Below are positions 130 to 63,367 of a stretch of DNA of 64,000 nt, in pieces (positions within the stretch are counted from its first letter, which is position 1; each line of letters starts with the position of its first letter). Source of the DNA: a virus (Duplodnaviria > Caudoviricetes); IMG/VR virus record IMGVR_UViG_3300034175_000069; one strand, given 5' to 3'. A model generated the notes under the pieces. That model was not told the DNA's origin. It made no database searches and was given only the letters and a program-made list of their open reading frames with translations. The position numbers were made by a program, and so were the translations under genes.

Positions 130-141
130 GGACACATCTGG

Positions 142-375
142 TTGACACGGACTGACAGACTGGCGATCGTGCCGCCCTCCCGTCGCTCTCAGCTGCTCAT
201 GTACTCCCGGCGTCTGCGCTACTGGCTCTGGCAGTTCAGCTGGTTCGGGATCTTCGCCGTGCTGTTCGGACTGCTGGCGGTCGGGCTGTCACTGCACGAA
301 GCACCCATCGGCCAGGTCGTGGCGGCGGGCTTCGCCGCCGTCACGCTGGCCATCCTTTCGACCAAGGAGACCTGA
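142..375 (+). CDS. small membrane protein
   Basis: Two hydrophobic segments; stop overlaps the next ATG; start uncertain (TTG 142 or ATG 199). Confidence 0.6.
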   Translation: MTRTDRLAIVPPSRRSQLLMYSRRLRYWLWQFSWFGIFAVLFGLLAVGLSLHEAPIGQVVAAGFAAVTLAILSTKET

Positions 376-689
376 TGACCCAGATCGAGTTCACCGAGTC
401 CGAGCCCACCGAGCCCGAGTTCGAGGTCCGCCGGGCGATGAAGAAGCCGGTGGAGATCCAGTCGGTCAAGGCCACCACCGACAACCTGCGCGAGATCGTG
501 GAGTGGATCGAGGGGAACAACCACGCCGCCGTCCTCGGTGAGGGCCAGCTGATCATCCAGACGCTGGAGGGCCCGTTCACCGTGCGCCCCGGCGACTACG
601 TCATGCGCGGCATCCGAGGGGAGTTCTACCGGTGCGACGCAGAGATCTACTCGGAGAGCTACGACGATCTGGGCCCGGCCGAGTCCTGA
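375..689 (+). CDS. conserved phage protein (KKPV..IQTLEG..PGDY..GEFY.C family)
   Basis: Motifs KKPVEI, IQTLEG, PGDYVMRGIRGEFYRC; RBS AAGGAG; TGATG overlap. Confidence 0.75.
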   Translation: MTQIEFTESEPTEPEFEVRRAMKKPVEIQSVKATTDNLREIVEWIEGNNHAAVLGEGQLIIQTLEGPFTVRPGDYVMRGIRGEFYRCDAEIYSESYDDLGPAES

Positions 690-1147
690 TGGCCGCCATC
701 TCTGACGTGTTCGCCGAGGCCCTGACCAAGGTGATCACCGACCGGCTGAGGCCCGAGCAGGCCAGCCGCCTGGCCGCTCTGGTGGCTGCGCGCGGTGCGC
801 GTCCGAACACCGATGCCTCGGACCAGATCCAGCTGGCGCACTTCATCCTCACGGGCAGCGGGGACATGCCTTCAATCGAGGAGCTTCAGCGTCTGGAGGC
901 CCTGGAGTTCTCCAGGCGAGGCACGGACGAGAGCTACACCGTCGAGCTGGGCGGCCAGCACTTCACGAAGGCCCAGTGGGAGGCCGTCCAGGTCTACGCC
1001 CAGGGCACGACCGCCGAGACAGCGCCGCTGGCCGAGGTGGCGATCGAGGAGCACCCCGACGATCCCGGTCCGGCGGCTCCGCCGGACTTCGATGCCGTCC
1101 CGCCCGCGCCCCGCGCCGGTGAGGGGTGGCAGGGTCACGCCCCGTGA
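689..1147 (+). CDS. hypothetical protein
   Basis: ATG overlaps upstream TGA; typical GC3 codon usage. Confidence 0.65.
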   Translation: MAAISDVFAEALTKVITDRLRPEQASRLAALVAARGARPNTDASDQIQLAHFILTGSGDMPSIEELQRLEALEFSRRGTDESYTVELGGQHFTKAQWEAVQVYAQGTTAETAPLAEVAIEEHPDDPGPAAPPDFDAVPPAPRAGEGWQGHAP

Positions 1148-1335
1148 GCCTGTTCCCCTTCCGGTGTTCGGCCTGCGGGACCGTCCACTACATCAACCGG
1201 GCGCTGGCCGTGGAGTGCCCGGTGGAGGCCTGCAAGGCCAAGGTCGGCCAGCCCTGCCGGGATCTCCGGACCAAGGAGGAGGCGGGGAAGACCCGGCTCC
1301 AGCCGCACCCCGAGCGAGAGGCGCTGCTGCCATGA
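1144..1335 (+). CDS. small Cys-rich zinc-binding protein
   Basis: CSAC, CPVEAC, PC...HPER; GTGA overlap start. Confidence 0.6.
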   Translation: MSLFPFRCSACGTVHYINRALAVECPVEACKAKVGQPCRDLRTKEEAGKTRLQPHPEREALLP

Positions 1336-1697
1336 CGTTCCGCCGCAAGGGTGGGGGTGTCCCCGCTGCAAGCGTGGGGGTCACCCCGCTGCAAGCACTG
1401 ACCCTCGGGCTGGCCACGGCCCGGTTGACACAGCTGGTGGTGGACGACGAGATCACCGAGCCGGGCCGGAAGGCCGTCCGCCGGGCCTACCAGGCTGCCG
1501 CACCCGGCTCCCAGCGAGAGACAGCGCTGGACTTGGCGGACACCGTGCTCAACTGCCACGCCTGCTCATCGGTCTGGGCCGGTGGCGCGGTCGTGACAGC
1601 CGAGCTGACCGGGGTGGGACGCTTCCTGGTGCGGGTGCTGGCGCTGAGCCAGGCTGCCCTGGCCGTGAAGGCCGTGATCGAGAGGATCGACCGATGA
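1332..1697 (+). CDS. DUF1360-like membrane protein
   Basis: LATARLTQLVVDDEIT...LNCHACSSVW pattern; ATGA overlap. Confidence 0.7.
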   Translation: MTFRRKGGGVPAASVGVTPLQALTLGLATARLTQLVVDDEITEPGRKAVRRAYQAAAPGSQRETALDLADTVLNCHACSSVWAGGAVVTAELTGVGRFLVRVLALSQAALAVKAVIERIDR

Positions 1698-2080
1698 CCG
1701 CCAGCATCACCCTGATCGCCGACATCTACCCGGCGTCGATCATCGACGGCCGGACCGGTGCCCGGCCCGAGGGCGTCCCGGCCAAGGCCAAGATCCGGGT
1801 CATCCTGGCCACCACCGAGATCAAGGTGGCCTGGGCCGCGCCGGGCGGCGGGGTCGAGAGCCTGACCATCCCGCTGACCTTCGAGGAGACGGCCGAGGCC
1901 GACCACAACGGCGGCACCGTCGGGACCTACGAGATCAAGCGCGCGGGCGGGTGTTCGTGCGACAAGATGCTGAAGCGCTGGAACCCCTACGCCGGGCAGC
2001 CGACAGCCCAGGTCGTTCGGTCCACGCCCAGCTCACGGACGGAGTCCTGGGGTCTGCCCCAGAAGTACAAGCGGCTCTGA
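1694..2080 (+). CDS. hypothetical protein
   Basis: ATGA overlap, coding-type codon usage. Confidence 0.65.
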   Translation: MTASITLIADIYPASIIDGRTGARPEGVPAKAKIRVILATTEIKVAWAAPGGGVESLTIPLTFEETAEADHNGGTVGTYEIKRAGGCSCDKMLKRWNPYAGQPTAQVVRSTPSSRTESWGLPQKYKRL

Positions 2081-2118
2081 GTCCAGGCCTTGTCAACCGC
2101 ACCCGGTGACTCTGCCGC

Positions 2119-2130
2119 TACGCTGCCGTC
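2119..2130 (+). promoter_or_regulatory. putative -10 (TACGCT) of a leaderless portal transcript
   Basis: TACGCT 2119-2124 then 6 nt then ATG 2131; no RBS; reverse TGTCAACC box at 2091-2098. Confidence 0.45.
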
Positions 2131-3777
2131 ATGGCTGGTGGGGTTCTCCGACGGAAGCGTGACGCCGCCCCCGAGGAGGGCCTGACCGCCGGAGCGCAGG
2201 TGGTCAAGCTCCCGGAGCGCCAGGCATCGGCTGCCCGGTACAGCAAGCCCCGGGCCATCGTCGCCTCCGCCGAGCGGGTGGACCTGGACACCGCCTGGCA
2301 GGAACGATCGCGGGCGTCCTACGCCGCCTGGCAGTCCGAGGCCTGGACCGGCTACGAGCGCGTGGGCGAGATCCACTACGGCTTCAACCTGGTCTCCAGC
2401 GTGCTGTCCCGGCTGCGGGTCTTCCCCGCAGCGCTGGTTGACACCGAGGAAGCCCCGATGGGGGCCCAGGACGCGGCCGAGAAGGGCCTGGTCAGCACGG
2501 ACCTGGCGCAGGACGCCGAGGAGATCATGCGGGAGATCTCCGGCCCGGCCTTCGCCGGTCTGGTCCGCAGCTTCGGCCTGAACATGAACGTCCCCGGCGA
2601 GTGCTACCTGATCCGCCTGGTGGGCGAGGACAAGGACAAGCGCAAGACGGTCCAGTGGAAGATCGTCTCCACCGACGAGCTGGTCGTGGACGCCACCGGC
2701 GCAGTGCTCCGCCCGATCCGGGGCGAGACGACGCAGCAGAAGGTGCTCCCGAAGAACACCTACATCGGCCGGATCTGGCGCTCCCACCCGCGCTACTCCG
2801 GTGAGCCCGACAGCTCCATGATCGGCGTCGCCGACGCGGTCGAGGAGCTGCTGATCCTCCAGCGCCTGGTGCGCTCTGCGACCCGCACGCGGCTGAACAA
2901 CGGCCTGCTGTTCCTGCCCGACGGCCTGCTGACCACGCGCATGGCGATGGCCCTGAACGGGCTGAACGAGGACGGCAGCCCGATCCCCGAGGATCAGCTG
3001 GCCGAGATGACCAACGATCCCGGCAACCAGCTGGTGGCCGACATCCTCCAGGCGATCGTCACGGCGGTCTCCGACGAGGGCGACGCCAGCGCGGTCGCGC
3101 CGATCATGGTCACCGGCGAGGGCGGCCTGGCCGAGCAGATCAAGCACATCACCTTCGAGCGCGGCTCCGACGAGTGGCTGGTCAGCCGCACCGAGCGCGC
3201 GCTGGAACGGATCCTCCAGGGCATCGACGTGCCCAAGGAGGTCGTCACCGGCCTGGCCAACGTCAAGTACTCCAACGCCCTGGTGATTGACGAGAACCTC
3301 TACAAGGCCAACATCGAGCCGCTGGCCCTGGTCCTCTCCGACGCCCTGACCGAGGTCTTCCTGCGGCCCATGTTGAGGGCCAAGGGGTATTCTGAGTCCG
3401 ATCTCAACAGGATCGTCGTCTGGTACGACCCGAGCGAGATCGTCACCCGCCCGAACCAGGCCCAGGACTCCAGCGATGGCTACGACCGCTTCGTGCTCGG
3501 CCCGGGTGCCTGGCGGCGGGAGCACGGCTTCAGCGACCAGGACGCCCCGAGCGAGGCCGAGATGGGCATGATGCTGCTGACCAGCGGCGCAGCCCTCCCG
3601 CCCGAGGTGCAGATGGCCCTGCTCCAGGCGATGCTGCCGAAGCTGCTGGGTGAGCAGCGTGAGAAGAACCTGGCGGAACAGCCGGTTCAGCAGCCCGACT
3701 CCGCCAGGAACATCCTGAGTCCAGCCCCCGAGTCCGTGAACGTCAGCGATGCAGCGACTGGAGTCAACGCCGCGTGA
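2131..3777 (+). CDS. portal protein
   Basis: 548 aa; WQSEAWTGYERVGEIHY, GECYL, RIWRSHPRYSGEPDS, WYDPSEIVTRPN, typical of actinophage cluster-B-like portals; position at the start of the head module. Confidence 0.85.
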   Translation: MAGGVLRRKRDAAPEEGLTAGAQVVKLPERQASAARYSKPRAIVASAERVDLDTAWQERSRASYAAWQSEAWTGYERVGEIHYGFNLVSSVLSRLRVFPAALVDTEEAPMGAQDAAEKGLVSTDLAQDAEEIMREISGPAFAGLVRSFGLNMNVPGECYLIRLVGEDKDKRKTVQWKIVSTDELVVDATGAVLRPIRGETTQQKVLPKNTYIGRIWRSHPRYSGEPDSSMIGVADAVEELLILQRLVRSATRTRLNNGLLFLPDGLLTTRMAMALNGLNEDGSPIPEDQLAEMTNDPGNQLVADILQAIVTAVSDEGDASAVAPIMVTGEGGLAEQIKHITFERGSDEWLVSRTERALERILQGIDVPKEVVTGLANVKYSNALVIDENLYKANIEPLALVLSDALTEVFLRPMLRAKGYSESDLNRIVVWYDPSEIVTRPNQAQDSSDGYDRFVLGPGAWRREHGFSDQDAPSEAEMGMMLLTSGAALPPEVQMALLQAMLPKLLGEQREKNLAEQPVQQPDSARNILSPAPESVNVSDAATGVNAA

Positions 3778-6700
3778 GCGACAGCCCGAAGTACACGACC
3801 GCGATCATCGCGGCGGTCCCGGCCAAGGCCGACCCCGTCAACGACGTGGTCATCGAGGACGCCCACGTCACGCTCCAGTTCCTGGGCGAGGCCGACAGCC
3901 TGTCGCCGGAGCAGATCAAGGACATCCAGGACGCCCTGGCCCTGATGGCCCCGAACCTCTACCCGTTCCCGGCGGACGTGGCCGGGACGGCCGAGCTGGG
4001 CCCGGACAAGGCCAAGGTGCTGCTGGTCCAGAGTGAGCCGCTGACCAAGCTGAAGGAGCTGCTGGGCACGGTCCCGGCGGTGTCAACCGCTGTCGCGGCG
4101 GCCGAGCAGTTCCCGAACTGGATCCCTCACCTGACCCTGGCCTACGGCGACGACGGCACGCAGGCCGACGGTGACGGCATCGAGCAGGTGACCATCGGCT
4201 CCCTGGAGCTGTGGCTGGCAGAGGAGCACCACGTGTACGAGCTGGCCAAGAGCGCACCCGGCCCGGTCGAGGAGGACAGCGAGGTCGCCAGCGTGATCGC
4301 GGCCGGACTCAAGAGCTTCGAAGAGGGCCTGCACCCGCGTGCGGCGGACGGCCGGTTCATCGACAAGTTCGGGGTGGTCAAGTACCTCTCGCCGAAGGGC
4401 GGCTGGGAGTACGGCAAGGTCGAGGGGATCAACAAGGACGAGGACAGCGGGGCCATCCAGGTCACGGTCACGCCCTCGGACCTGTCCGGGAAGATCACCG
4501 GCGCGGAGAGCAAGGTGCTCTCCCCGAAGCAGCTCTACCACGCACCGAAGGCCAAGGCGCACCTGACGATCGCGGCTCCCGGCTCCAAGAAGGTCGGCGG
4601 CCAGGGCGGGTCCAACCCCGGCGGGCTCTACACGATCCCAGTCGCCTTCCCGAAGGAGGGCAGCAACGGGCAGCCCGAGAAGTACTACGTCAAGCAGCCG
4701 AAGACCAAGTCCCACGGGGCCAACGAGGCGCTGGCCAACGACCTCTACGCCGAGGCCGGGGTGCCGGTCCCCGAGGTTGACATCGGCTCGGACGGCCAGA
4801 TCTACAGCAAGATCATCGAGGGCAAGCAGGACATGGCTGCCCAGCTGAACAACCCCGAGTGGACCGACCAGATCCAGCGGAACTTCGCCGTGGACGCCTG
4901 GCTCGGGAACCGCGACGTGTTCGGCATGACCTACGACAACGTCCTCACCGACGAGCACGGCACCGCCTGGCGCATCGACAACGGCGGGGCCCTGCTCTAC
5001 CGCGCGATGGGCGAGAAGAAGACCGACTTCGGCTCCCAGGTCACCGAGCTGGACGCCTTCCGTCAGGGCAAGAAGGCCAAGATCTTCGGCCCCTCGATGA
5101 CCAAGGCGCAGGAGCTGGATGGGGCCGAGCGCGTGGTGGCCATCTCGCCCTCGCGCATCGAGGAGATGGTGGCCGACGCCGGGCTGCCGAAGTCCCTGGC
5201 CGACACCCTGAAGGCCCGCCGCCAGTACATCGCCAACTACTACGGGCTGGAGCTGCCCGAGACCAAGAAGGCCGACGAGGCCCAGGAGGGCTCCAGCGCG
5301 CCGCTGGTGGACCCGGCCGACATCTCGGCGACCAAGGGCAAGGCCCGGGGCTGGTTCAAGACCACGCTGGCGCAGGCCGCCTTCGTGCTCCAGACCGGGG
5401 ACAAGGTCGAGTTCGGCGACGGCAAGCGGGTCGATCCGGGCGTGGACGACGACGGCAGCCCGCTGTCGATGATCGGCGCGGCGGCCCAGCTGCTGGGCTG
5501 GCAGAACGAGCACGGCGCGAACGCCGAGATCTTCGTCTACAAGGGCAAGGTCACCGCCGGGATCCCCCGGCCGAGCCACGGCCAGAAGCTGGCCACCGCC
5601 GACCTGGCCGACCAGCGCTGGCAGCGCGGCGACACGATCACCAGCCCGCTGGGCAACGACGCCAAGATCCTCGGCTGGAACTCCGACACCGGCGCGGTGC
5701 TGATCCAGTACCCCAACCAGCAGCCGCAGCTGCTGGACTCCAAGGGCACGAACGCCAACGCCGGGCCCTGGACGGTCAAGAGATGGGACCCACCGGCCCA
5801 GGAAGACCTGGACCTCTCGGCCCCTGAGTCGGCCACCCCGGAGGCTCAGGCCCCGGCTCCCGCGCCCACGCCGATGGTCGAGGACGTGCCCGCGCCGGAC
5901 ACCGTCCCGCCGACCGCTGAAGACCTCGGGATCGTCATCCCGACGCCGGGCAAGACGGGTCAGGCCGCTGAGGCTGAGACCGCGATCAAGGCCGACCTGG
6001 ACCAGCCCCTGCCCGCCGGTACCGGCGCTCCCGCTCCCGCCAAGACCTCCGCCAAGGGCGGGGCCAAGACGATGGTCCTGGGCGACGGCACCGAGGCCGC
6101 CCCGGGCGCTGAGGTGGTCAGCAAGAAGGACGGGAAGACCTACAAGTTCGTCAAGCCGAAGGGCCAGTACTCGGTCGTCACCGACCCGAACGGCGACGAC
6201 CCGGACAAGCTGCTGCTGAAGCTCGCGTCCACCATGACGCAGCCCGGCAAGGAGCCCACGGCCGACGCGGGCGCGATCGAGGCCCCGAAGACCGCTACCG
6301 GGGAGATCCCGGCGCTGGGCATGATGGCCGTCTCCAAGGACGGGCACGCCGGTGAGATCACGCTGATCTCCCCGGATGGCAAGTTCGTCTTCATCACCGA
6401 CGCGAACGGCGTCCGCAAGCGCAAGAGCACGGGCACGGTCACGATCACCTCCGCCCCGCAAGCGGTTGACACGACCCCGAAGGCCGCGCCCGGCCCGCTG
6501 AAGGACTACGGCGCGGCTCCCGACCTGAAGGCGGCCAAGGAGGCCTTCCCCGGGCTGGACTACGACCCGGCTGAGGATCTGGACGCCGGGGACATGGTCA
6601 TCGTCGGCTACGCCGATGGCAGCTTCGGCAAGGAGCCCTACACCGGCCAGCCGCTGGACAGCCTGCTCCAGAACACCGGGGGCAAGGTCGCCAACCACGG

Positions 6701-9700
6701 CACGGTGAAGGACTACACCGGCCCGATCTCCACCCAGCAGCTGGTCCAGGCGTCGGCGGTCAAGAACAACAGCACGACCTTCGAGGTCGTCTGGGGCGGC
6801 ACGATCGGCTTCACGGACGGCACGGTGGGCCCGAGCGGCGGGCTGGTCATCTGGGGTGTTGAGAACGGGATGCCGGACCCCGGCTACGCCTTTGAGCTGC
6901 CGAAGGAGGGGCAGAACGTCCACATCCTCGGCTCGGAGGAGAACTTCGCGCTGGCGCTGCCCGGCGGCACGGGCTTCCAGGCCAACGATGGCTGGACCGG
7001 CACCGCCTCTCCGGCTCCGCTGTACGGCGACGAGGCCAAGACCCCGGCCGAGTGGTCCGGCCAGATCTCCGTCGGCCAGGAGATCAGCCTGGACGGCCAG
7101 AACTGGCTGACGGTCACGAACGTCATGGCCTCCGACTCCCTCCAGGTGGAGGACAGCAACGGGGCGACGGCCTACCTGGCTTCCTCCTCCCCGGCCACCT
7201 ACGTGCTGAAGGCCCCGCCGATGAAGGACGCGGACGCGCCTTCCCCGGCCTTCGACCCGGCCAACGACACGACCCCGGACATCCCGGGTGCGGACGAGAC
7301 CACGACCACCGGGCCGCCGACCAAGAAGCCCAGTGAGCTGGTCAGCGGTGACGTGGTGGTGGCCTTCGACGGCACCTACGCGATCATCGAGCAAGCCGAG
7401 AAGGAGGACGGCTTCGGCGGCTGGAACCTCACGTCCCTGGGCACCTTCGAGACGGAGTGGGCACCCAGCTCGGCCGACCTGAAGTACCAGGGCAACATCA
7501 AGGCCGGGTCGGTGGATGTCCCGATCGGTGCCTTCGCCGGGCAGTTCTACCCGGGCGTGAACTTCCAGCCCGGTCCGGACCACGACATGACGGTGGTCTC
7601 CTACCCGTCCCTCCAGGACAACGGCAACCAGAAGTTCGCCGTGATGATCAACGGCGACCCCGAGAACCTGGCGATCGTGCAGGTCGGCCCGGGTGCCGGA
7701 GCGGACATCGGGCCGGACGCGGTGATGGGCGTCTACCTCGCGCCCTTCCAGACCTCGGCCGAGAGCGGCGTGGACACGGGCAAGGTCAACGACCTGTTCG
7801 ACGCCAGCGTGACGGTCGATCAGACCCCGCCGGACCACTACTGGGCGATGTCTGACCAGGGCATCGACTTCGGCAACGCGCAGTACCCGATCTACGCCAG
7901 CGGCAGTGGCGGCTACTACCGGATCGGCCCGAACGGCGGGCAGGTCTGGAACGCCGCGCAGCTGGAGTGGGAGTCCTCCAGCACGACCGTCACCGGCATG
8001 GACAAGGTCTGGGACGGCAAGCCTTTCGAGGGCAAGCTGAAGATCCCCGAGGGCACGAGCCTCTCGCTGTACGGCGCGGGCTCGGCGGACTACAAGCCTG
8101 ACGCGGGCGAGGCCGTCGCCCTCATCACGCTGCCCGGCACTTCCGGCGCGCTGATCGTCTCCCCGTCCGGCAGCTTCTCACCGGGGTCGAAGGTCTACAC
8201 GGTCAAGGGCGACGGCTCCGGGGTCTACTCCCCCGGCTACAACGTCGAGGACCTGGGCCCCGGCCAGATCACCGTCATCCACGACCCCTTCGGTCCGGTT
8301 GACACGGGTCCGGCGCTGGTCCACCACCAGGGCCCGCTGGCTCCGACCTTCCTGGCGAACAAGCTCAACGACTACGGCTACACCCCGGCCGACGGGGAGA
8401 CCTTCCTGATCGCGCAGATGCCCTCCGGGGGCATGTCGGTGCTGACCAAGCAGTCCGACGGCACCTACAAGAAGATCGGCTACTCCGGCCTGGGTCAGAA
8501 GACCTGGACGCTGGACGAGGTCATCGAGCAGGGCAACGACGTCGGGGCGGACTTCTACACCTGGACGCATGTCCCCGAGGGTGAGAACGGGCCGACCGTG
8601 GTTGCCGGGCTGCCCGGGGACTACGCGCCGTTCATCCCGGGCGAGGGCCAGGCGGTCCTGAAGTCCACGATGCCCAACGGCAAGGTGAGCATCTACCTCC
8701 AGCAGCAGCCCGGCGGCGGCTGGTACCTGATGTCCCCGGACGGGACGATTGACGAGTCCTCGGACGCGATCAAGAGCAACCACGTCGTCCAGATGAAGCT
8801 GTCGGGCAAGGGCTCCAGCAGCCAGAAGTACGAGCTGCTGCACCCGACCGAGGGCGGCACGAAGGCCACGCCGGACGCCCCGCCGACCTTCAGCAACCAG
8901 TCCACCTCGTTCACCCCGGCCCCGGGGCAGAAGGTCGTGCAGCTGCTCAGCTACGAGGGCGACGACGACCCTTGGTTCTTCGTGCAGAGCACGCCGGGTG
9001 GCGAGTGGGCTCCGGCCCCGACCAACCCCGAGGCCGGGGCTCCGCTGGGCGACTCCGGGATGCAGGCCTACCTGGCCAAGTCCCTGGCTGCTCAGCCGGG
9101 CGCTGCCGGGTCCAAGTACACGCTGGTCTACGACGGCACCGGCAGCGCGGCTGCTCCGGCGGTTGACACCGAGGACACCCCGACGCCGGACTTCGAGGGG
9201 TACATCCCGCAGACCGGCGACAAGGTCATCTCCTACGCGCCGAACGGCACGACGGACCCGTACTTCTACGTCCAGCAGGGCGGCGAGGGCCCGTACAAGA
9301 TGGCCGTCGGGGGCCAGCTCTCCAGCTCCACGGTGATGCAGGCCAGCGAGATCCCGACCAACCTGGGCCCGGAGTTCGGCAACGACTTCCACCAGGAGTG
9401 GCCGCTGCCCGAGACGACCCCGGCCGCTCCGGCCGGTGGTGGCGTCTTCGACGGCTACCAGAGCGACCCCGGCGACAACGTCGTCTCCTTCACCGGCCCC
9501 ACCGGCGGGACCACCACGGTGGTCAAGAAGGACGGCACCTGGCAGCCGATCGTCAACGGCCAGCTGGAGGCCGATGACGCCTACAGCCAGGACACGATGG
9601 AGTGGGCGGCCAGCCAGTCCGGCTACACCGTCAACGTCCTCCAGGGCTCGCTGAAGGGCGTCCCGGGCGAGGGTGCACCGCTGGACACCGGTGGGGAGCA

Positions 9701-12536: not shown

Positions 12537-13405
12537 CCGCGCCCGTGCAGTTCCCCAACCCCGCGATGGTGGAGACCACCTACCGGGTGACGACCGACCC
12601 GGTCACCGACACCGAGGAGGACCGGGTGCGCCTCCAGCCGGTCGGTGGCCTGGTCGCCGGTCTCGCCGACACCGGCGGCTGGAGCGTCGGCTGGGACGAG
12701 GACGGGGGCGACTACATCTCGGGTGTCATCCTGACCTCGGTGGAGGATCAGGGTGACTGGATCGTGGGCGTCTCGGACAACGGGCAGGCCTTCCGGTTCC
12801 GGGACCTGGACCCCTACGACGCAGTGACGATGTCGGCGGCTGGAGTTCCCCAGCCGCTGTCGGTGGTGCAGGCAGAAGTGATCCGAGGGGGAGTCTTGGC
12901 GAGTCAGCTGGACGCAGTCGTGGCACCGGACAACACGGTGGCCACCCTGATGCTGGAGACGGGTCTGGGCACCTACGTGCGCTACGCCGGGGACTGGCAG
13001 TTGCTCAGCAGCGACACCGGGGCCCTGGAGGACATGAGCCTGGTGGCAGTCGGTGCGGCGGCCCTGGATGTCTGGGACGCCGCTGACGCGGCCAGCCACA
13101 CGATCTCGGTCTTCGACCTCCCGGTGCCCAGCGCTGACGGCCCGGACATCGACCCGACCACGGACGTGGACGTGGAGACCACGGCGGCCATCGCGGCCAG
13201 CGGCGTGCAGATCCCGCAGATCGTCCGGACCGAAGACCTGGACCTCGGCATCCGCTACGCCAACACCCACCCGGCCGCGCGCTGGTACGTCACCAAGCGG
13301 GCTCGCGCGCTCAGCGCCTCCGCTCGGATCCCGGCGCACTGGAACGTGGCTCCAGTGGCCGTGACGCCCCCTTTCTCGATGGCCGGGCGGGAGATGGAGA
13401 TGTAG
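12533..13405 (+). CDS. head-module protein with C-terminal DUF6582-like domain
   Basis: C-terminus IPQIVRTEDLDLGIRYANTHPAARWYVTKRARALSASARIPAHW parallels a domain in the protease. Confidence 0.7.
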   Translation: MTAPVQFPNPAMVETTYRVTTDPVTDTEEDRVRLQPVGGLVAGLADTGGWSVGWDEDGGDYISGVILTSVEDQGDWIVGVSDNGQAFRFRDLDPYDAVTMSAAGVPQPLSVVQAEVIRGGVLASQLDAVVAPDNTVATLMLETGLGTYVRYAGDWQLLSSDTGALEDMSLVAVGAAALDVWDAADAASHTISVFDLPVPSADGPDIDPTTDVDVETTAAIAASGVQIPQIVRTEDLDLGIRYANTHPAARWYVTKRARALSASARIPAHWNVAPVAVTPPFSMAGREMEM

Positions 13406-44960: not shown

Positions 44961-44988
44961 GGGTCCAGTATGCCGAGAGATGTCAACC
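44961..44988 (-). promoter_or_regulatory. leaderless promoter with proximal box only
   Basis: GGTTGACA-8 nt-CATACT-6 nt-ATG; no canonical -35. Confidence 0.55.
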
Positions 44989-49666: not shown

Positions 49667-49990
49667 TCAGGTGGGATCGACTGGCACGAAGCGCAGGTAG
49701 ACCTCCACGGGATGGTCTCGCTCGACGCGCTTGTCGGTTGACACCTGGACCTCCCAGCGCCCGCCCTCGGGGTTGGCGAAGGCTGCGATGAGCCCCCGCC
49801 GGATGCGGTAGGCGGTCTGGGAGAACACGCCGTAGCGCGCTTCCGGGCCACCTCCCACCAGGTGCCACTCGCCGGGCTTGCCCTTGACGGTGTCGGCCAC
49901 GGTCCCGAAGTCCTCGAACAGCACCCGCGACCGGGTACGGCGCGGCTGCTGTGCAGTGACAGTCGGGCTGTCGATCACGGATGCAGTCAT
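49667..49990 (-). CDS. small conserved actinophage protein, possibly DNA-binding, leaderless
   Basis: VKGKPGEW...TAYRIRRG...AF...GRWEV. Confidence 0.65.
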   Translation of the reverse strand: MTASVIDSPTVTAQQPRRTRSRVLFEDFGTVADTVKGKPGEWHLVGGGPEARYGVFSQTAYRIRRGLIAAFANPEGGRWEVQVSTDKRVERDHPVEVYLRFVPVDPT

Positions 49991-50026
49991 GGGACCAGTA
50001 TGGGACAGATGGTCAACAGTGTCAAC
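49991..50026 (-). promoter_or_regulatory. tandem-box sigmaA-type promoter
   Basis: TTGACA-CTGTTGACCATCTGTCC(17)-CATACT-6 nt-ATG. Confidence 0.75.
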
Positions 50027-54677: not shown

Positions 54678-54706
54678 GGATCTCCCCCTTCCTTGTCAAC
54701 CGAGAC

Positions 54707-55535: not shown

Positions 55536-56402
55536 TCAGTTGCTCCCCTGCTCAGTGGTGGTGTTGGCGTCCCCGGCCGTGTCAACCGGGGTCTCGTTCT
55601 GGGTCGGTCCGGTGTGCGCCGGTGCAGCGATGCCCCGGCCCTTGTAGACCATCTTGATCAACTTCTCGAACGTGACGTTCTTGGCGCGGATCTCGTCCTC
55701 GGTGTCGCCCGTGACCTGCGGCAACTGGATGATCGGCGGGATCCGGCCGCCCACCCGCTCCCCGGCCTCCTTGTTGTTCATCCGGCGGGTCTGGAGGAAC
55801 CGGGTCTCCACGCCGTTCACGTCGGGCTCGACGTAGATCCACGCGGTCACGTCCATCAGGTACGGGATCTGCGTGGCCAGCTGGCCCTGGAGGTAGGGGC
55901 GCATGGTCCCCTGCTGGTCCTCCTTGGTCATGGAGGTCAGCACGACGGCCTCCAGCGGCTTGGTCGGGTGCATCGTGAGGTCCCGGAGGTCCCGCACGAA
56001 GCCGCCGACCTCGCGGAGCGCAGCGCCCCAGTCCTGGATCTTCATCTGCTCACGGCCGGAGGCGTGCTCGACGTAGCGGTACTGAAGCTCCGAGATCGAG
56101 TCCACCGTGGCGGACCGGAACGGGTGCTCCCCCTGCTTCAGCCAGTCCAGCACCTGGAGGGCGGTGGACCAGTTGCGGGTCGGCACGACGGCCGTGTCCC
56201 ACTCGGGCTCACCCTTGACGATCTTCGGCGCGGGAGGCGGTCCGACGATCGGGTCCCAGATGATCGACTTGATCGGCAGGAACCGGGCGGCGCTCTCCAC
56301 GTCCAGCATCACGCGGGGCCAGGGGGTGGAGGCCCCCAGCAGCGACTTCCCCGCCTTGCTCGGTCCGTGGACCAGCATGGAGAGGGCGTTGACGGTGGTC
56401 AT
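55536..56402 (-). CDS. AAA_24 / Sak4-like ATPase recombinase
   Basis: HGPSKAGKS, LDVES, VDSISELQ, PYLQG, YLMD. Confidence 0.85.
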   Translation of the reverse strand: MTTVNALSMLVHGPSKAGKSLLGASTPWPRVMLDVESAARFLPIKSIIWDPIVGPPPAPKIVKGEPEWDTAVVPTRNWSTALQVLDWLKQGEHPFRSATVDSISELQYRYVEHASGREQMKIQDWGAALREVGGFVRDLRDLTMHPTKPLEAVVLTSMTKEDQQGTMRPYLQGQLATQIPYLMDVTAWIYVEPDVNGVETRFLQTRRMNNKEAGERVGGRIPPIIQLPQVTGDTEDEIRAKNVTFEKLIKMVYKGRGIAAPAHTGPTQNETPVDTAGDANTTTEQGSN

Positions 56403-57053: not shown

Positions 57054-58051
57054 CAGGCCGGGCCCCCGGAGATCTCGGCGTCCCCGGCGCTGTCGGCCAG
57101 GTACCGGGCCCACGGGTTCCCCTCGGTGTAGAGGTCGGCCAGCATGTCCTCGGCACCCTGCGGGCTGGACTGCATCAGGTCGCACGGCAGCTTGAACGGG
57201 CACGTGGCGCACTGCCAGCCGGGCTGGAAGTAGGCGATCCGGCGGTGGTCCACCCCGGCGTCCAGGGCGAACCGGGTCCGGGCCAGCTCGGAGACCGCAC
57301 CCTCCAGGCGCACGTCGTAGGCGGCCTGCTCGACCTCGGAGATCTCGATGGTGACCCGCTTGTAGAACGGCGGCTTGGCGGTCGGGGTGCGCAGCACCTT
57401 CCGCAGCAGCGTGTAGACCACGCCGCGCACGTCGGAGTCCGGGTCGTTGGCCTTCAGCAGCCGCCGGTACAGCCGGGGCTGCGGCGACTTGTAGAGGGTG
57501 ACCATCGCGGGCTCCCCGAAGTTGCCCATCGTCTTGAAGTCCGCCACGTAGATGGTGCCGTCGGACTTCCGCCGAATCTGCCGGTCCAGCTTGCCGCGCA
57601 GCAGGATGGTCACCTCGGTGTCGCCATCGGGCGTGTCAACCACCATCGGCAGCTCGTGGGTCAGCGCCTGCTCCACCGCGACGGTGTCGAAGTAGGCGTC
57701 CTCACCGTCGGCCTCCAGCCACTCCAGGTAGCCCTCCATCATCCGGTGGCCCAGCTTCGACTCCTTGTCCAGGGCCTCGATGAACGGGTTGCCGTTGGCC
57801 TCGGCCACCGCGTACTCGTGGGCCATCAGCTGCTTCCACGCCTCGGCCGGGTGCAGGCCCAGGTCGTAGTAGGCCTCCAGCGCGGCGTGGATCCGGGAGC
57901 CGAACGGGAGCGGCCCGGTCGGGGGCTCGTCCTTCAGCCGGAGCTTGCGGTAGGTGCCCAGGTACCAGGCGCGGCGGCACTGGGCGAACTTCCCCAGGTC
58001 GCTGAAGCTGGCGATCGTGTTGTCCGGGATGTGGATCGCAGGTGCGCTCAC
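57053..58051 (-). CDS. Cas4/RecB-like PD-(D/E)xK exonuclease with Fe-S cysteines
   Basis: SFS...QCRR.W, GSRIH..LE, GKLD...ADFKT, CATCPFKLPC. Confidence 0.85.
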   Translation of the reverse strand: MSAPAIHIPDNTIASFSDLGKFAQCRRAWYLGTYRKLRLKDEPPTGPLPFGSRIHAALEAYYDLGLHPAEAWKQLMAHEYAVAEANGNPFIEALDKESKLGHRMMEGYLEWLEADGEDAYFDTVAVEQALTHELPMVVDTPDGDTEVTILLRGKLDRQIRRKSDGTIYVADFKTMGNFGEPAMVTLYKSPQPRLYRRLLKANDPDSDVRGVVYTLLRKVLRTPTAKPPFYKRVTIEISEVEQAAYDVRLEGAVSELARTRFALDAGVDHRRIAYFQPGWQCATCPFKLPCDLMQSSPQGAEDMLADLYTEGNPWARYLADSAGDAEISGGPA

Positions 58052-58272: not shown

Positions 58273-59012
58273 AGGAAGGTCTCCTTCGCTGAGACGGTGA
58301 TCTGCCGCCGGGGCTTGGCCGGGACAGGCGTGGGAGACGGGGCGGAGACGGCCGGTTCCCGGGGGACCGGCGGTAGCGCGGGGACGGGCACGGGCCCCTC
58401 GTCGTGGCGCAGCGCGGCCCGGTACCGGTTGACACCCCACTGGACGGCGAAGCAGGACCAGAGGAAGTGGTGCTTGAAGCCGCGCAGGTCCCACTCCCAG
58501 GCGTCGGAGAACCGGAAGCGGTCGGCGTGCCCCTGCCACTCGAAGCGGTCCACGGCCGAGCGGAAGGTGCCCTCGTCCTCCTCGACCTCCCCGTCCAGGA
58601 TCTCGTGGCAGATGTCGTCCCAGAGATCCCGGGTCGCGGCCAGCACCCAGCCGTGCTCGTCCGCCCACTCGCGGAAGTGCTCGATGACGTGCTGGCGGGC
58701 CAGGTCCGGCTCGTAGGCCCGGATGTCCCCGGCCTTGACCTTCTCGCCCCAGTAGCCGGGGTTGATGTCCTGGCCGGGGCGGCCGAAGAAGGTGGTCATG
58801 TCCTCGACGCGGCTGAACACGTAGGTGCCCATGTCGCCGTTGAAGCACAGCGACCCGGGCCAGGTGATCAGGTCGAACCAGTAGAGGCCGGTGTCCGGTC
58901 GCCGGAAGGTCAGGTGCCGGTACAGGCCGTCGTCGTGGAGCACGGTCATCTCGTGCTTGGCCGTGTCCATCACGAAGATCTTGGCGGCGAGAGGGTGTCT
59001 CGTCTGAGTCAT
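58269..59012 (-). CDS. conserved phage hypothetical protein
   Basis: HEMTVLHDDGLYRHLTF...FDLITWPG.L...GDMG.YVF...IN..YW.EK. Confidence 0.75.
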   Translation of the reverse strand: MTQTRHPLAAKIFVMDTAKHEMTVLHDDGLYRHLTFRRPDTGLYWFDLITWPGSLCFNGDMGTYVFSRVEDMTTFFGRPGQDINPGYWGEKVKAGDIRAYEPDLARQHVIEHFREWADEHGWVLAATRDLWDDICHEILDGEVEEDEGTFRSAVDRFEWQGHADRFRFSDAWEWDLRGFKHHFLWSCFAVQWGVNRYRAALRHDEGPVPVPALPPVPREPAVSAPSPTPVPAKPRRQITVSAKETFL

Positions 59013-59416: not shown

Positions 59417-60064
59417 ATGCCGCGCGGAGTGAAGTCCGAGCCGGGGCCGATGCGCTACGACGTGTGCCGGAGTCCTCGCGGCCGGGCCGGTGCCGAGCGG
59501 CACCGGAAGGACGGGACGCCGTCCTGTCAACCGTGCCGGGACGCGGCGTCCAAGGCGCACCAGCTCTACAAGCTGCGGTGCATGAGGCAGGGCGAGCAGC
59601 TGGTCTCCAGCATCGGCACCCGGCGGAGGCTGCGCGCGCTGGCCGCGATCGGCTGGACCTTCGGCGAGATCGGCACCGAGCTGGGCGGCTGGAACCACAC
59701 GACGGTCCAGAAGCTGGCCAGCGAGCGGTCCGACCAGTGCTGGCTGTCCACCGTCCAGGCCGTCCGTGGGGTCTACGACCGGCTGTCGATGACGCCAGGC
59801 TGCTCTGCCTACGCCCGGAACCGGGCGGCGCGGCAGGGCTGGCTCCCGCCGCTGGCCTGGGACGACGAGATGATCGAGGACCCGGACTACGTGCCGCTGG
59901 AGCAGGTCATGCGGGACTGGGAGCAGGCGCTGACCGAGGACCGCGCCTGGGAGGCCCGGCACAAGAAGCGGCTGGCCCGGCAGCGCAAGGCGGCCGAGCG
60001 GGACTCGGAGTTCCTGGCGCGGCAGCGCGAGCGCGAGCAGACGGCCAGGGAGAGTGCGGCGTGA
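59417..60064 (+). CDS. HTH DNA-binding protein with N-terminal Cys/His zinc motif
   Basis: RH.K.G...C.PC; RRLRALAAIGW...IG.ELG; YDRL; GWLPPLAWDD. Confidence 0.75.
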   Translation: MPRGVKSEPGPMRYDVCRSPRGRAGAERHRKDGTPSCQPCRDAASKAHQLYKLRCMRQGEQLVSSIGTRRRLRALAAIGWTFGEIGTELGGWNHTTVQKLASERSDQCWLSTVQAVRGVYDRLSMTPGCSAYARNRAARQGWLPPLAWDDEMIEDPDYVPLEQVMRDWEQALTEDRAWEARHKKRLARQRKAAERDSEFLARQREREQTARESAA

Positions 60065-60357: not shown

Positions 60358-60478
60358 GCCCGGGACTATTTGAGGGCTTCACAACACGTAGTGGCCCGGT
60401 GCCCAGCTGTGAGCACCGGGATAGTGTCGATGGTCCCGGGACGGCTTCGGCCGGACCGGGATCGCAGGGGGAGATGAG

Positions 60479-61624
60479 ATGGCGACAGCGGCGTTGACGG
60501 AGGGCTGGCCCGCACGGAGCGTGCGGAGGCTGGAGCAGGTGATCGAGCCGGGTCCGGTGCCCGGTGACGGGGCGCTGGCGGGCGAGCGCTGGATGCTGGT
60601 CTGGAACCGGGACAGCCTCGGCGAGTGCTGCTGCTGGCGCGGCACCGTGCGGTCGGTGGAGTCGCCGGTGGCGTCCGTGGGGTCCTGCCAGCGGCCGGGG
60701 AAGCACCCCTGGACGGTGCGGGTTGACGGTGAGCAGTACGGCTTCGTGCACGGGGCGGCCGACGCCCTGGAGTACGTGGAGCTGCTGGACCGCTTCGGGC
60801 CACCCGGAGGCGCGCGGCAGCTCGGGGTCGTGCTGGACGACCTCCTCCTGATCGACATCGACGGGCCGCGCGCGCTGCGGGACTTCGCCCGGATGTCGTT
60901 CACCGTGCCGAAGGACAAGATCATCGGGGTCAGCACCTCGCCTCGCGGCTACCACGTCTGGCTGGACGTGCCGGGCTGGTCGCAGAAGGCGGTCAACGAG
61001 TGGATGGCCAGCTGGCTGGGGCCGCTCGGGGGCTGGGACGGCACCGACGAGAAGAAGGCCGGTCGCCGGGGCTTCCTGGTGGACGTGCGGACCGGGAGCA
61101 ACCGGTACGCGGTCTGGCCGGGGTCGGCCGCTGAACGGCGCTGGATCTCGCGCCGGGAGTTCGGCGCTGTCCTCGCGCGCGCGCTCGTGGGGATGCCGCC
61201 GTGGCGGATGGTCCCGGCCGGGGACAAGAAGGACGGCGGCAACGCCCCGTGGTCGGTTGACATGGGGGACCAGTGGCTCCAGGGCTGGATCAGTGAGCGG
61301 TCCGGCGGCGGCGAGATCTCGCTGGAGGGGCTGACGTTCTCGGGGGAGGACGCCGAGCTGGAGATGACCTGGGCGGAGCTGGAGCGCTGGCTGGCGCGGC
61401 TGGAGCGCATGGGTGCAGGTCAGGGGCGCAACAACGCGCTGAATCAGGCCGCGTACTTCAGCGGGTCACGGTGCATCGCAGCTGGATGGCCGGTGGACAC
61501 GGTGCGCGCGCGGATCATCGAGGTGGGGGAAGCAGTGGGCACGCACGGAGTTCGAGCGACGGTGGAGTCGGGGCTGGGCTCCGGCCTGGCGGCGCTGCGC
61601 AAGCAGACCCAGGTCAAGGACTGA
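60479..61624 (+). CDS. bifunctional DNA primase/polymerase (prim-pol) with PriCT-like end
   Basis: PGKHP, LLIDIDG, TSPRGYHVW, VDVR..YAVWPGS, GRNNALN.AAY. Confidence 0.8.
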   Translation: MATAALTEGWPARSVRRLEQVIEPGPVPGDGALAGERWMLVWNRDSLGECCCWRGTVRSVESPVASVGSCQRPGKHPWTVRVDGEQYGFVHGAADALEYVELLDRFGPPGGARQLGVVLDDLLLIDIDGPRALRDFARMSFTVPKDKIIGVSTSPRGYHVWLDVPGWSQKAVNEWMASWLGPLGGWDGTDEKKAGRRGFLVDVRTGSNRYAVWPGSAAERRWISRREFGAVLARALVGMPPWRMVPAGDKKDGGNAPWSVDMGDQWLQGWISERSGGGEISLEGLTFSGEDAELEMTWAELERWLARLERMGAGQGRNNALNQAAYFSGSRCIAAGWPVDTVRARIIEVGEAVGTHGVRATVESGLGSGLAALRKQTQVKD

Positions 61625-61630
61625 CCCGGG

Positions 61631-63367
61631 GTGCAGGGGGATGCAGGGAAGGTGCAGGACCCGTGGACGGCGGCCACGGCGCGGATCGTCACGATGATCA
61701 AGTCCGGGGTGGACCCGCTGGAGGGGATGCTCGGGGAGGGCTACGGGACTGACCGGACCGTGGAGAAGCACGCGCGGTTGTTCGCCGAGGCCAACAGTGT
61801 GGACGTGGCGATGATCATGCCCGTGCTGCTGGCTGCCTACTCCGGGGCCACCCAGGGCGCGTTCCTCGCGCCGCTGTACTCCGAGGACTGGACCCCGGCG
61901 CACGTGCCGCTGGTCTTCCAGTTCCTGGGGATCGCGGAGTCGGGGGCCCGCAAGTCCACCGTGCTGAAGGAGGGCCGTGGGCCGCTGGAGCGCGCGATGG
62001 CCTGGGGCGTGGCCAGGCGGCGTGAGTGGTGCGCGGTGCAGCAGCAGCTGGCCAAGGAGGCGGCTGGCCACGACGGGATCTCCACGGACAAGTTCGCCGA
62101 CCTCTACGCCAAGGTCTTCGCCGGTGGGGTCTGTGCCAGCACCTTCGCCGACAACGGCACGCAGGAGGGCATCCGGAACAAGCTCATCGCCAACGGCGGG
62201 CACCGCGTGCTGCTCACCGGTGAATCGGATGTCCTGCGCGAGGTCGGTGCCTATGCCAAGGGGGGCGCGGGGTCGCTGGGGTTGTTCGTCCGCACCTGGG
62301 ACCAGGAGACCCTGTCAACCGACCGCGCCTCTGGGGACTCGCACCTCTACATGCCCGAGGCGTCGATGCCGTTCCTGATCTTCGTGCAGCCCAACGCCTT
62401 CACCGAGTACACGGCGGTGTCGGCCCGGGGCTACGACGAGTTCACCGACAAGGGCGTCTTCGGCCGCGCGTGGCTGTGGCGGATGCCCGAGGCCGAGATC
62501 CCGGAGTCGTTCACCTTCAAGCCGAAGCCGAAGCCGGGAGAGGGCAGTGGCCTGCTGAACTGCCGCCTGCTGGCCGAGGAGAAGATGCGGGTCCTCGTGG
62601 ACCGGTCCAACGAGTACCGGGCGACCAAGGGCATCCGGTACGCCTGGGAGACCACCGCCGGTGCGGCGTCGGCGCTGAAGGAGCCCTCGGAGGTGGCCCG
62701 GGAGCTGATCGAGCTGGAGCCGGGGATCGGTGAGGACGCCTTCGTCCGGGTGCAGAACATGCTGCTGGAGCTGCGCAGGGCGCTGCGCGAGGCCGACCAG
62801 GTCGATGCGGGGCTGTCCTACAGCTACCACCCGCTGGTCGCCCGGTTCACCGACCACGTCATGCGGCTGGCTGCCCTGCTGTCGCTGGCGGATTCTCCGG
62901 ACACCGCAACGGTTGACACCGCGCACATTCAGGACGTGGCCTGCCGGTTGATGCCCTGGCTGTGGTCGGGGTGGACCTCGGTGATGAGCGAGCGCCGGTC
63001 CTCGAACATCAGTGAGCTGGTCGAGGAGTCGGCCCTGAAGAACAGCAAAGGGATCGACCTCACCAAGCGCGGCGCGGTGCTGCGGGCGATGGCGGCGCTC
63101 GGGGACGGGCCTAGTGCGATGGCTGGCTTCACCGGGTCGCAGATCTCCGAGCGGGCCCGCGCGGTGGTCAAGGGCGGGAAGAAGATCAGCGGCCTGGGTG
63201 CCGAGATGCGCCGGGTCCTCGATGAGCTGGCCAACGCGGGGGAGCTGGTCGAGAGGTTCACCCTGCCCGGCGCGAAGCTGGACGCCACCGGCAAGGCCGC
63301 GCCGACCTACCGGCTCACCCCGGCCGGGCATCAGGCGGTGCAGAAGATGGGCCCTGGAGGCAGCTGA
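61631..63367 (+). CDS. DUF3987 / YfjI-like ATPase (helicase partner of prim-pol)
   Basis: IAESGARKST, T.EG...L, R...ASMPFLIFVQP, G..GR..., RLAALL. Confidence 0.75.
   Translation: MQGDAGKVQDPWTAATARIVTMIKSGVDPLEGMLGEGYGTDRTVEKHARLFAEANSVDVAMIMPVLLAAYSGATQGAFLAPLYSEDWTPAHVPLVFQFLGIAESGARKSTVLKEGRGPLERAMAWGVARRREWCAVQQQLAKEAAGHDGISTDKFADLYAKVFAGGVCASTFADNGTQEGIRNKLIANGGHRVLLTGESDVLREVGAYAKGGAGSLGLFVRTWDQETLSTDRASGDSHLYMPEASMPFLIFVQPNAFTEYTAVSARGYDEFTDKGVFGRAWLWRMPEAEIPESFTFKPKPKPGEGSGLLNCRLLAEEKMRVLVDRSNEYRATKGIRYAWETTAGAASALKEPSEVARELIELEPGIGEDAFVRVQNMLLELRRALREADQVDAGLSYSYHPLVARFTDHVMRLAALLSLADSPDTATVDTAHIQDVACRLMPWLWSGWTSVMSERRSSNISELVEESALKNSKGIDLTKRGAVLRAMAALGDGPSAMAGFTGSQISERARAVVKGGKKISGLGAEMRRVLDELANAGELVERFTLPGAKLDATGKAAPTYRLTPAGHQAVQKMGPGGS

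Follow-up and report, generated by a model that had tools for sequence, protein, structure and literature searches.

A GTTGACA box dispersed over a high-GC phage genome is selected at the DNA level and doubled in predicted promoters

The genome and its gene content

The virus record IMGVR_UViG_3300034175_000069 (Caudoviricetes) is a genome of 85,437 bp with a guanine-plus-cytosine (GC) content of 69.4%. We analysed a stretch of 64,000 nucleotides from it, bases 21438-85437 of the record (the window, in whose numbering all features are given), over which a short word, GGTTGACA (reverse complement TGTCAACC), recurs at near-even distances. We call each copy of this word a GG box. The whole array comprises 54 GG boxes and 29 further GTTGACA boxes and extends, on both strands, from 140 to 62918.

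Gene calling with a codon-usage model yielded 124 genes in the genome. Pfam and PHROGs scans, which together covered all 124 open reading frames (ORFs), identified a set of replication genes (SNF2 helicase, Pol A, AAA_24, Cas4-like nuclease, Prim-Pol and DUF3987) as well as virion genes and genes for a 2920-aa polyvalent protein, a zeta-like kinase, a HIT protein, an isochorismatase and an amidase. Neither megablast nor blastn retrieved a close DNA-level relative among GenBank phages, the best GenBank portal matches being about 40% identical, and full-text literature searches combining the word with phage terms did not turn up a description of GGTTGACA in phages. Relatives were found in IMG/VR; in what follows, G000 is the present genome.

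The box is selected at the DNA level

The window contains exactly 54 copies of GGTTGACA/TGTCAACC, all within 140-62918, which confirms the count of about 54 given in an earlier note on this DNA; dinucleotide shuffles of the window (n = 100) had a mean of 1.1 copies and a maximum of 5, close to the single expected copy that the note had estimated. In the whole genome there are 70 copies against some 1.4 expected, an enrichment of about 50-fold. Most of these (52 of 70, 74%) are wholly contained within called genes, where 500 shuffles among synonymous codons left 2.6 ± 1.6 copies (maximum 8) and shuffles of codon order left 0.7, compared to the 52 real ones.

The cost to coding is visible in two codons. 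GTT makes up 3.1% of the Val codons and TCA 3.0% of the Ser codons, and about a third of each (36% of all GTT and 34% of all TCA) falls inside a GGTTGACA copy, in agreement with the claim that the box forces codons that are otherwise rare here. The coding copies are distributed among five strand/phase classes (V-D 22, S-T 14, V-N 9, L-T 6 and C-Q 1), which indicates that selection on GGTTGACA acts on the DNA, as had been proposed; of the 111 synonymous placements possible in the present proteins, 51 are used. The dinucleotide, synonymous-codon and codon-order shuffles rule out chance, composition or a codon artefact, and the insertion of a mobile element or repeat is likewise ruled out, because the copies are in frame in conserved genes, without indels. 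The array is thus a genuine DNA signal, under strong selection and conserved.

The note was right that the box contains TTGACA but not in taking the full 8-mer as its core: as deduced from counts of single-base variants, the core is the 7-mer GTTGACA, with 108 copies in the genome against 3.9 expected, and a G stands before each of the genome's 108 TTGACA hexamers. The boxes fall into two classes. In 38 copies the core is preceded by T, A or C, and these are mostly promoter boxes (see below). The solitary class, of about 70 boxes, has the extended consensus Y-GGTTGACA-C-G(G), whose flanks Y..C-G are identical in three genomes.

Position, spacing and orientation of the boxes

The GG boxes occur in all parts of the window (plus strand unless marked −). 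The first, at 140-147, is intergenic and is followed by N8-CAGACT, resembling a single-box promoter. It is followed by boxes in a gene at 1423-1430, between genes at 2091-2098 (−), in the portal gene at 2436-2443 and, repeatedly, in the gene for the 2920-aa protein, at 4081-4088 (−), 4775-4782, 6464-6471, 8297-8304, 9161-9168, 10745-10752 and 11878-11885 (−). Further boxes are found in the zeta-like kinase gene at 13982-13989 (−), in other genes at 15336-15343 (−), 16632-16639 (−) and 18551-18558, and in intergenic DNA at 19203-19210, directly before a hairpin and T-run, 21672-21679 and 22873-22880. Around the tape measure gene, boxes lie in a gene at 24070-24077 (−), at a gene end at 24601-24608, in the intergenic DNA ahead of the tape measure gene at 25326-25333 and within it at 25878-25885 (−) and 28521-28528 (−). 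There are then boxes in genes at 29004-29011, 30410-30417 (−) and 31931-31938, and an intergenic box at the arm junction, 33515-33522 (−).

Beyond this junction, boxes are located in genes at 36430-36437, 37263-37270 (−), 37920-37927 (−), 38360-38367, 39697-39704 (−), 40430-40437, 41669-41676 (−), 43082-43089 (−) and 44403-44410, with an intergenic copy at 42184-42191 (−). Another is inside a gene for a HicA-like/zinc-finger protein, at 47025-47032 (−), two are at sites with no called gene, 48133-48140 (−) and 48860-48867 (−), and one is in a gene at 49736-49743. In the replication region, boxes occur in the SNF2 helicase gene at 50733-50740 (−), 51450-51457 and 51942-51949 (−), in the DNA polymerase A gene at 54146-54153 (−), in intergenic DNA at 54694-54701 (−), in the AAA_24 gene at 55580-55587 (−), in a PD-(D/E)XK nuclease gene at 57634-57641 (−), in genes at 58427-58434 and 59525-59532 (−), in the Prim-Pol gene at 61255-61262 and in the DUF3987 gene at 62313-62320 (−) and 62911-62918.

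The near-even spacing that had been noticed by eye is borne out: the gaps between solitary boxes, with a mean of 1.2 kb, have a coefficient of variation (CV) of 0.56 against 0.98 for random placement, a regularity that was reached in 0 of 20,000 simulations and that persists against a null of random choice among the 111 synonymous placements. The minimum gap is 257 bp, where 17 would be expected, and neighbouring exact 8-mers in the window are at most 2,915 bp apart (33515 to 36430), which replaces the 2.6 kb initially given.

Orientation is a different matter. There are 32 plus and 38 minus copies in the genome and 16 and 11 in the rightward arm (this recount replaces the 16 and 14 of the note), and the coding boxes are co-oriented with transcription in 28 cases and opposite to it in 24; the corresponding numbers in other genomes are 27/18, 22/28, 57/33 and 54/35. 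Moreover, each orientation taken separately has a CV of 0.71-0.82, the same as after permutation of the labels, and it is the union of both orientations that is regular (CV 0.49-0.56). Orientation labels therefore behave as random. Random orientation, together with a regularity seen in the union only, argues against Chi and KOPS, whose polarity would show in each orientation, and also against primase starts, RNA elements and stoperators; in particular, Chi-like, primase-site and RNA-level readings fit poorly. Intergenic boxes follow the direction of transcription in 15 of 18 cases here, a tendency that was not reproduced in relatives and that we do not consider further.

These data bear directly on the idea that the phage primase (Prim-Pol/DUF3987) starts preferentially at the boxes in lagging-strand synthesis, at intervals of Okazaki length. 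The mean gap of 1.2 kb is indeed in the range of Okazaki fragments, and the phage encodes both Prim-Pol and a DUF3987 helicase, but there is no strand bias about any point of the genome and single orientations are no more regular than random labelling. In addition, Prim-Pol/DUF3987 homologues are present in a relative that has no array (G008, IMGVR_UViG_3300043496_000175) and were undetected in two relatives that have it (G006 and G007), and primase sites leave the link to promoters unexplained, so that we consider this explanation hardly credible.

Doubling of the box in predicted promoters

The same box is doubled in the promoters of the phage, which the earlier note had missed. We identified about 19 near-identical leaderless sigmaA-type promoters, 11 of them with exact tandem pairs of the box (9-bp period) and about eight with degenerate pairs; the former and most of the latter lie between genes. 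Double-box promoters were defined as a −35 box followed, 2-4 nt downstream, by a second box (GTTGnn) and then by a −10 hexamer, and their layout is: tandem boxes, about 8 nt, CATACT, 6 nt and ATGACGCAGA. According to this layout, the upstream box is the −35 element, separated by a 17-nt spacer from the −10-like hexamer, and the second box is inside the spacer. Transcripts would start at the ATG and would thus be leaderless, with a common MTQ start. A scan with consensus promoters found 8 sigma-70-type promoters in 12.5 kb, exactly at double-box sites, against 0.4 in shuffles. Genome-wide, 1 of 108 boxes fits TTGACA-N16-18-TAnnnT and the −35/−10 spacing is found in the promoter class only, indicating that solitary boxes are without a canonical −10 partner. 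A few solitary GG boxes occupy the position of the spacer box with the −35 missing (GG box, N8, CAGACT/CATACT, N6, start codon). A scan of 185,579 genomes with the promoter pattern retrieved chance matches only, in unrelated low-GC metagenome-assembled genomes.

In the window, double-box leaderless promoters are located at 19886-19925 (−; extending through the ATG, with boxes at 19919-19925 and 19910-19916), 35612-35650 (−; −35 TTGACA, 17 nt, CATACT), 36071-36109 (−), 37003-37042 (−), 42523-42562 (+) and 45370-45409 (−), and a double-box promoter with a leader, at 46671-46701 (−), precedes the gene of a 298-aa protein. The second box is degenerate in the promoter at 41145-41173 (−; GATGACA) and in that of the HicA-like/zinc-finger gene, at 47290-47329 (−; GTTGAGT). 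It reads GTTGACC in the promoter at 49988-50026 (−), which has a leaderless ATG at 49990 and indicates that the conserved 107-aa gene at 49667-49990 (−) starts at 49990, in agreement with the earlier note, and not at the 49924 chosen by the gene caller. The single-box version is exemplified at 44958-44988 (−) by GG box 44981-44988, N8, CATACT, N6 and ATG. Across this promoter family (the window sites plus genome positions 513-12577), the first codons, ATGACGCAGA (Met-Thr-Gln), are also shared, so that many early genes, otherwise unrelated, begin with one fixed DNA sequence; this is also the case in the relatives G001 and G002.

The occurrence of the same box, doubled, in phage promoters ties the grid to transcription, and this tie is not restricted to the present genome, since 9-12 double-box promoters per genome were found in each of G000, G001, G002, G006, G007 and G011. 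Those of G006 and G007 have a 10-bp period and a −10 of the form TAnnnT.

Conservation of the array in related phages

Seven relatives in IMG/VR that are complete or nearly so, with 52-77% portal identity and 60-71% GC, also have the array, as do several fragments, and phages that have it keep 60-110 copies each, one every 0.8-1.2 kb or so. The present genome (85.4 kb, 69% GC, 70 GG boxes, gap CV 0.56) forms a high-GC group with G001 (89.6 kb, 70-71% GC, 59 boxes, CV 0.54), G002 (86.5 kb, 70-71% GC, 66 boxes, CV 0.49) and G011 (82.7 kb, 70% GC, 79 boxes, CV 0.58); G001 and G002 show about 72% nucleotide identity to it over some 58% of the genome. TTGACA is preceded by G in every copy in G001 and G002 and in 111 of 112 copies in G011, and spacing is over-regular in each of these three relatives (P < 0.001 in all cases), a property confined to the four genomes of 70% GC. 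The more distant G006 (86.5 kb, 102 boxes, gap CV 0.85) and G007 (86.2 kb, 109 boxes, CV 0.89), with 61-62% GC and 52-54% portal identity to G000, have the word enriched about 50-fold and keep the 5' Y. Likewise, the fragments G009, L130, L157, L158 and L162-L164 (portal identity 49-77%) carry 0.5-1.1 copies of the word per kb. Three other related genomes, complete or nearly so, lack the array: G008 has 3 GG boxes, 1 double-box promoter and 8 ordinary TTGACA-N16-18-TAnnnT promoters, and G012 (IMGVR_UViG_3300018481_000019, loci L231-L235) and G013 have 2 and 7 GG boxes, respectively, and no double-box promoters.

The conservation of sites in related phages, for which the note had called, is evident: 54-67% of aligned boxes are intact, compared to 23% for random 7-mers. 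Against G006 and G007, with around 50% protein identity, 5-6 of 22 mappable boxes are at the same codons when about 0.35 would be expected by chance, and the other sites have turned over with density kept. The boxes at 1423, 6464 and 24070 share their position with G006 and G007, that at 47025 with G001 and G006, that at 55580 with G002, G006 and G007, and that at 10745 with all four relatives compared. The flanks are less constant than the core, since a C follows the box in 57% of the 108 boxes here, in 60-83% of the GG boxes in G000-G002 and in 32-37% in G006 and G007. This weakens the suggestion that the boxes are sites for WhiA, whose GACAC core would require that C.

The word GGTTGACA is identical across phages of 49-100% portal identity, as if it were set by a universal host protein, and this raises the possibility that its reader is the host RNA polymerase holoenzyme, acting through region 4 of sigmaA. 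Solitary boxes would then work as −35-only landing pads or as sponges, either gathering polymerase on the phage DNA or diverting it from the host. The box contains the exact −35 consensus, TTGACA, and the phage uses it in about 19 promoters with a CATACT-type −10 located 16-18 nt downstream; its invariance extends over 60-71% GC, no phage DNA-binding protein tracks the array cleanly, and contact with a −35 alone needs no polarity, which fits random orientation. However, recognition exceeds the hexamer, because G comes before all of the 108, 84 and 95 TTGACA of three genomes and there is conservation of the flanks Y-G..C-G, and the solitary boxes, found in either orientation and within genes, have no −10 partner. 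The second box within the spacer is left unexplained, G008 has ordinary TTGACA-N17-TAnnnT promoters yet no array, and holoenzyme binds weakly to a lone −35 element. We thus regard this explanation as unlikely.

The anatomy of the array also recalls the uptake sequences (USS, uptake signal sequences, and DUS, DNA uptake sequences) of Pasteurellaceae and Neisseriaceae, which are non-palindromic, distributed more evenly than at random at about one per 1.2 kb, similarly numerous in both orientations, largely genic and present in several frames (PMC2817400). The statistical likeness is nearly point for point (PMC2817400), the word of the present phages being non-palindromic, 8-11 bp long and found at one per 0.8-1.2 kb. 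This word might accordingly be a self tag that marks phage DNA for protection, recombination or packaging and that a processive DNA machine reads, much as uptake sequences or Chi are read, and it might spread partly by biased recombination. The relatives of 61-62% GC, with high numbers and near-random placement as if dose mattered over position, are in line with this, as are the many sites that turn over with density kept and the recombination set of the phage itself (Cas4-like nuclease, AAA_24 protein and SSB-like protein). Uptake sequences, nonetheless, belong to bacterial chromosomes and competence machinery, and spread by biased uptake and recombination, whereas the present word is in lytic-looking phages, for which no uptake step is known, and doubles as a promoter element. 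A strand-specific signal of the Chi type predicts regularity per orientation, when only the union is regular, and a self tag leaves unexplained the double boxes in promoters and their co-occurrence with the array. To our knowledge, no such DNA machine has been described in actinophages, and we see this possibility as distinctly unlikely.

Related phages without GGTTGACA arrays can have other words. G012 (93.8 kb, 57% GC) contains 66 copies of TTTCAAAA, where 1.1 would be expected; they are randomly spaced and occur in both orientations and in every phase. Such arrays thus look lineage-specific. A third word, GAATGACA, is enriched in a set formed by L216/L215 and L180, from which TTGACA is almost absent: there are 15 copies in the 15.7 kb of L216 (1-15694), where shuffles gave 0.28, and another 5 in 6.6 kb. 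We do not take GAATGACA as a clean dialect, because about half of the copies in L216 are at gene junctions, with a ribosome-binding site followed by GAATGACATGA; it could be either a dialect of the box or a sequence tied to gene starts. That words differ between lineages speaks for a reader encoded by the phage, and that GGTTGACA itself is strictly invariant speaks for one tied to the −35 consensus of the host; a phage protein in competition with sigma region 4 at the −35 would fit both facts.

A putative reader of duplex DNA

Around 1% of the genome is fixed as one word against a strong codon bias, and such a costly constraint implies an important DNA-protein interaction that annotation has missed. 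Together, our results suggest, with a probability that we put at roughly 35%, that the array consists of binding sites for a putative reader of duplex DNA that also acts at promoters and that is probably encoded by the phage. The duplex protein-binding grid envisaged in the earlier note remains the best reading, and we place it among dispersed operator-like arrays.

As judged from the sequence, the GTTGACA box would be the recognition word of a sequence-specific, double-stranded-DNA reader, most likely a phage protein that binds an asymmetric, monomer-sized site. In promoters, this protein would find the word twice as a direct repeat, 9-10 bp apart, once as the −35 and once within the 17-nt spacer, and on these boxes it should collide with sigma region 4 and with the spacer, so that the outcome at early promoters might be a switch, probably a shut-off. 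The solitary Y-GGTTGACA-C-G boxes would each bind this reader on their own with high affinity, and would retain it or load it all along the chromosome, so as to coat, bridge or buffer. That a single reader serves both kinds of sites is argued mainly from the fact that the spacer box and the dispersed array travel together among genomes.

The closest parallel is found in the stoperators of cluster A mycobacteriophages. The stoperator consensus of phage L5 has a TGTCAA core, the complement of TTGACA. Both systems consist of asymmetric sites dispersed over a phage genome, some of which are promoter operators and most of which are not associated with promoters. The cluster A repressor has a true operator among the dispersed sites, inside the promoter Pleft (PMC6550527), which is a precedent for a reader that serves promoters and dispersed sites alike. 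In this system, to which the immunity repressors of L5 (gp71) and Bxb1 (gp69) belong, monomeric binding of the repressor has been reported (PMC9283540). Cluster A genomes, however, have 20-30 stoperators, oriented with transcription, and their consensus drifts with the repressor between subclusters (PMC6550527). In the present phages there are 60-110 sites of 8-11 bp, 74% of them coding and in either orientation (28 versus 24 with respect to transcription), and the word does not co-vary with divergence, the same 8-mer being found at 49-100% portal identity. The array shares with stoperators the copies inside promoters, where the box is both the −35 and the spacer copy at about 19 sites. Stoperators are also accompanied by a repressor and by temperate growth; here, Pfam and PHROGs detected neither a repressor, an integrase nor parABS among the 124 ORFs, of which most small ones match no family, and the phage therefore looks lytic. 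The distinction from stoperators that had been drawn on first inspection thus holds, the present boxes being shorter, mostly coding and not oriented with transcription. A grid of the ParB/KorB type does not fit either, since the word is non-palindromic and no ParB family was found among the 124 ORFs.

Other short conserved words are known in phages, such as the nick motifs of T5-like and some Pseudomonas phages and the 17-bp dyad repeats of cluster O mycobacteriophages, which are scattered, also within genes, and whose function is unsettled; the cluster O repeats are palindromic and fewer than the present boxes, and we know of neither type as a part of promoters. By analogy with the localised single-strand interruptions of T5-like and some Pseudomonas phages, the boxes could be putative targets of a phage enzyme that nicks or modifies a fixed word. 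The word is short and asymmetric, is present on both strands and is kept inside genes, and such an enzyme could hide among the small ORFs, most of which have no known family. Still, Pfam and PHROGs do not find a nickase, HNH nuclease, methyltransferase or other modification gene, and a tie to the −35 and spacer boxes of promoters is not expected of a nick site, so that we deem this very unlikely.

Candidates for the reader

Three phage genes were considered as possible sources of the reader. The first is a 194-aa early gene (46708-47292, −) whose product combines a HicA-like domain, two C2H2 fingers and a long helix. The HicA-like alpha-beta-beta-beta-alpha domain matches HicA chains with template modelling (TM) scores of 0.68-0.72 over 54-56 residues, at E values of 0.1-0.6 only, and the C2H2 fingers, of eukaryote type, match ZNF410 in the PDB (E = 2e-5). 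The gene was found in 6 of the 6 array genomes searched and is missing in three array-less genomes; a search for more zinc-finger contigs in viral and metagenome collections returned the same genomes and one 3-kb contig. The second, a 298-aa gene (45731-46627, −) that always adjoins the former, was rejected: the fold prediction for its N-domain has a predicted local distance difference test (pLDDT) value of 73 and no fold match (Foldseek E > 0.1, best VIA Z = 3.1), and the gene is also present in the array-less G012. The third is a 63-aa gene (1144-1335, +), a weak candidate, whose product belongs to the Pfam family Phage_zn_bind_8 ("putative DNA-binding phage zinc finger"; 35.6 bits against a cut-off of 24). 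This family was detected in G006 and G011 and not in G008, G012 or G013. The binders that the earlier note had put forward fared no better, because 59417-60064 has no homologue in the array-bearing G006 and G007, and 49667-49990 and 33017-33322 are also present in the array-less G008.

Several observations speak against a dedicated phage reader, or at least against the candidates at hand. Among all 124 ORFs, Pfam and PHROGs detected no helix-turn-helix repressor, sigma factor, ParB, integrase, parABS, methyltransferase, nickase or HNH nuclease, with most small ORFs matching no family at all. In a profile-based presence/absence table of six array genomes and three genomes without the array, two genes track the array, and both are weak candidates. 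In G011, which keeps the array, the homologue of the 194-aa protein is reduced to the 83-aa HicA-like part (L211 18667-18918), and the contact positions of the fingers are not the same in G000 as in G001/G002; the fingers are thus not required for the array, and the C2H2 protein was downgraded as a reader. The correlation of Phage_zn_bind_8 with the array is clean in complete genomes and imperfect among portal-side fragments: the family occurs in L165-L167 and L180, without enrichment in GGTTGACA, and was not found near the portal in L162-L164, which carry GGTTGACA. The invariance of the word across 49-100% portal identity also fits a host reader, given that cluster A sites drift with their repressor. 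The placement of boxes in G006 and G007 is nearly random (P = 0.06-0.12), and the avoidance of promoter boxes by solitary boxes, significant in the present genome only, was discarded. Finally, we know of no function that binding sites within genes would have in a phage that is apparently lytic.

We also contemplate a broader and more speculative proposal, which we hold to be improbable: the lineage-specific words (GGTTGACA in most members, TTTCAAAA in G012 and perhaps GAATGACA in a third lineage) might constitute a self-marking code of uncultured high-GC siphophages, read by an undescribed phage machinery that couples promoter control to genome-wide DNA handling, and would then be a counterpart of uptake sequences and Chi instead of a variant of stoperators. 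The doubling of the word in promoters gives a tangible starting point for finding a new factor of actinophages in transcription or chromosome handling, and the system can serve to test why phages keep evenly spread motif arrays. There is also a practical side, in that synonymous recoding or synthesis of such genomes would erase the signal unnoticed.

Other features of the genome and of related sequences

The 2920-aa protein (3774-12536), whose gene adjoins the portal gene, has an N-terminal 2H phosphoesterase domain. The zeta-toxin-like kinase gene (13492-14925) is situated among virion genes, and was found in 6 of the 6 array genomes searched and also in G012. The last partial ORF (63813-63998) is 98% identical to the first ORF of the genome (genome positions 19-342), so that the record overlaps at its two ends, suggesting that there is a terminal repeat or that the genome was assembled as a circle. 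At 19203-19260, the box that comes after the gene at 18028-19197 is followed by a GC-rich hairpin and a T-run, as in a terminator, and G006 has similar box-plus-hairpin pairs at 54914, 69597 and 74199.

Other enriched words and clusters were found in further genomes and contigs. For instance, G012 is also enriched in TTTTCAAA (37 copies), and G008 contains 11-13 copies of the word CCGAGCAAAGGA, probably a promoter- or start-associated repeat. A 452-kb contig (G004, IMGVR_UViG_3300032315_001715) has 30 copies of GGTTGACA in 43 kb, between 19.9 and 63 kb, 25 of them on the same strand; this looks like an oriented promoter set, unlike the present array. Lastly, a 5-kb contig of 65% GC (L058, IMGVR_UViG_3300013005_003338) carries nine GTTGACA boxes on both strands within 290 bp (354-643), in what looks like a dense regulatory or origin-like cluster.

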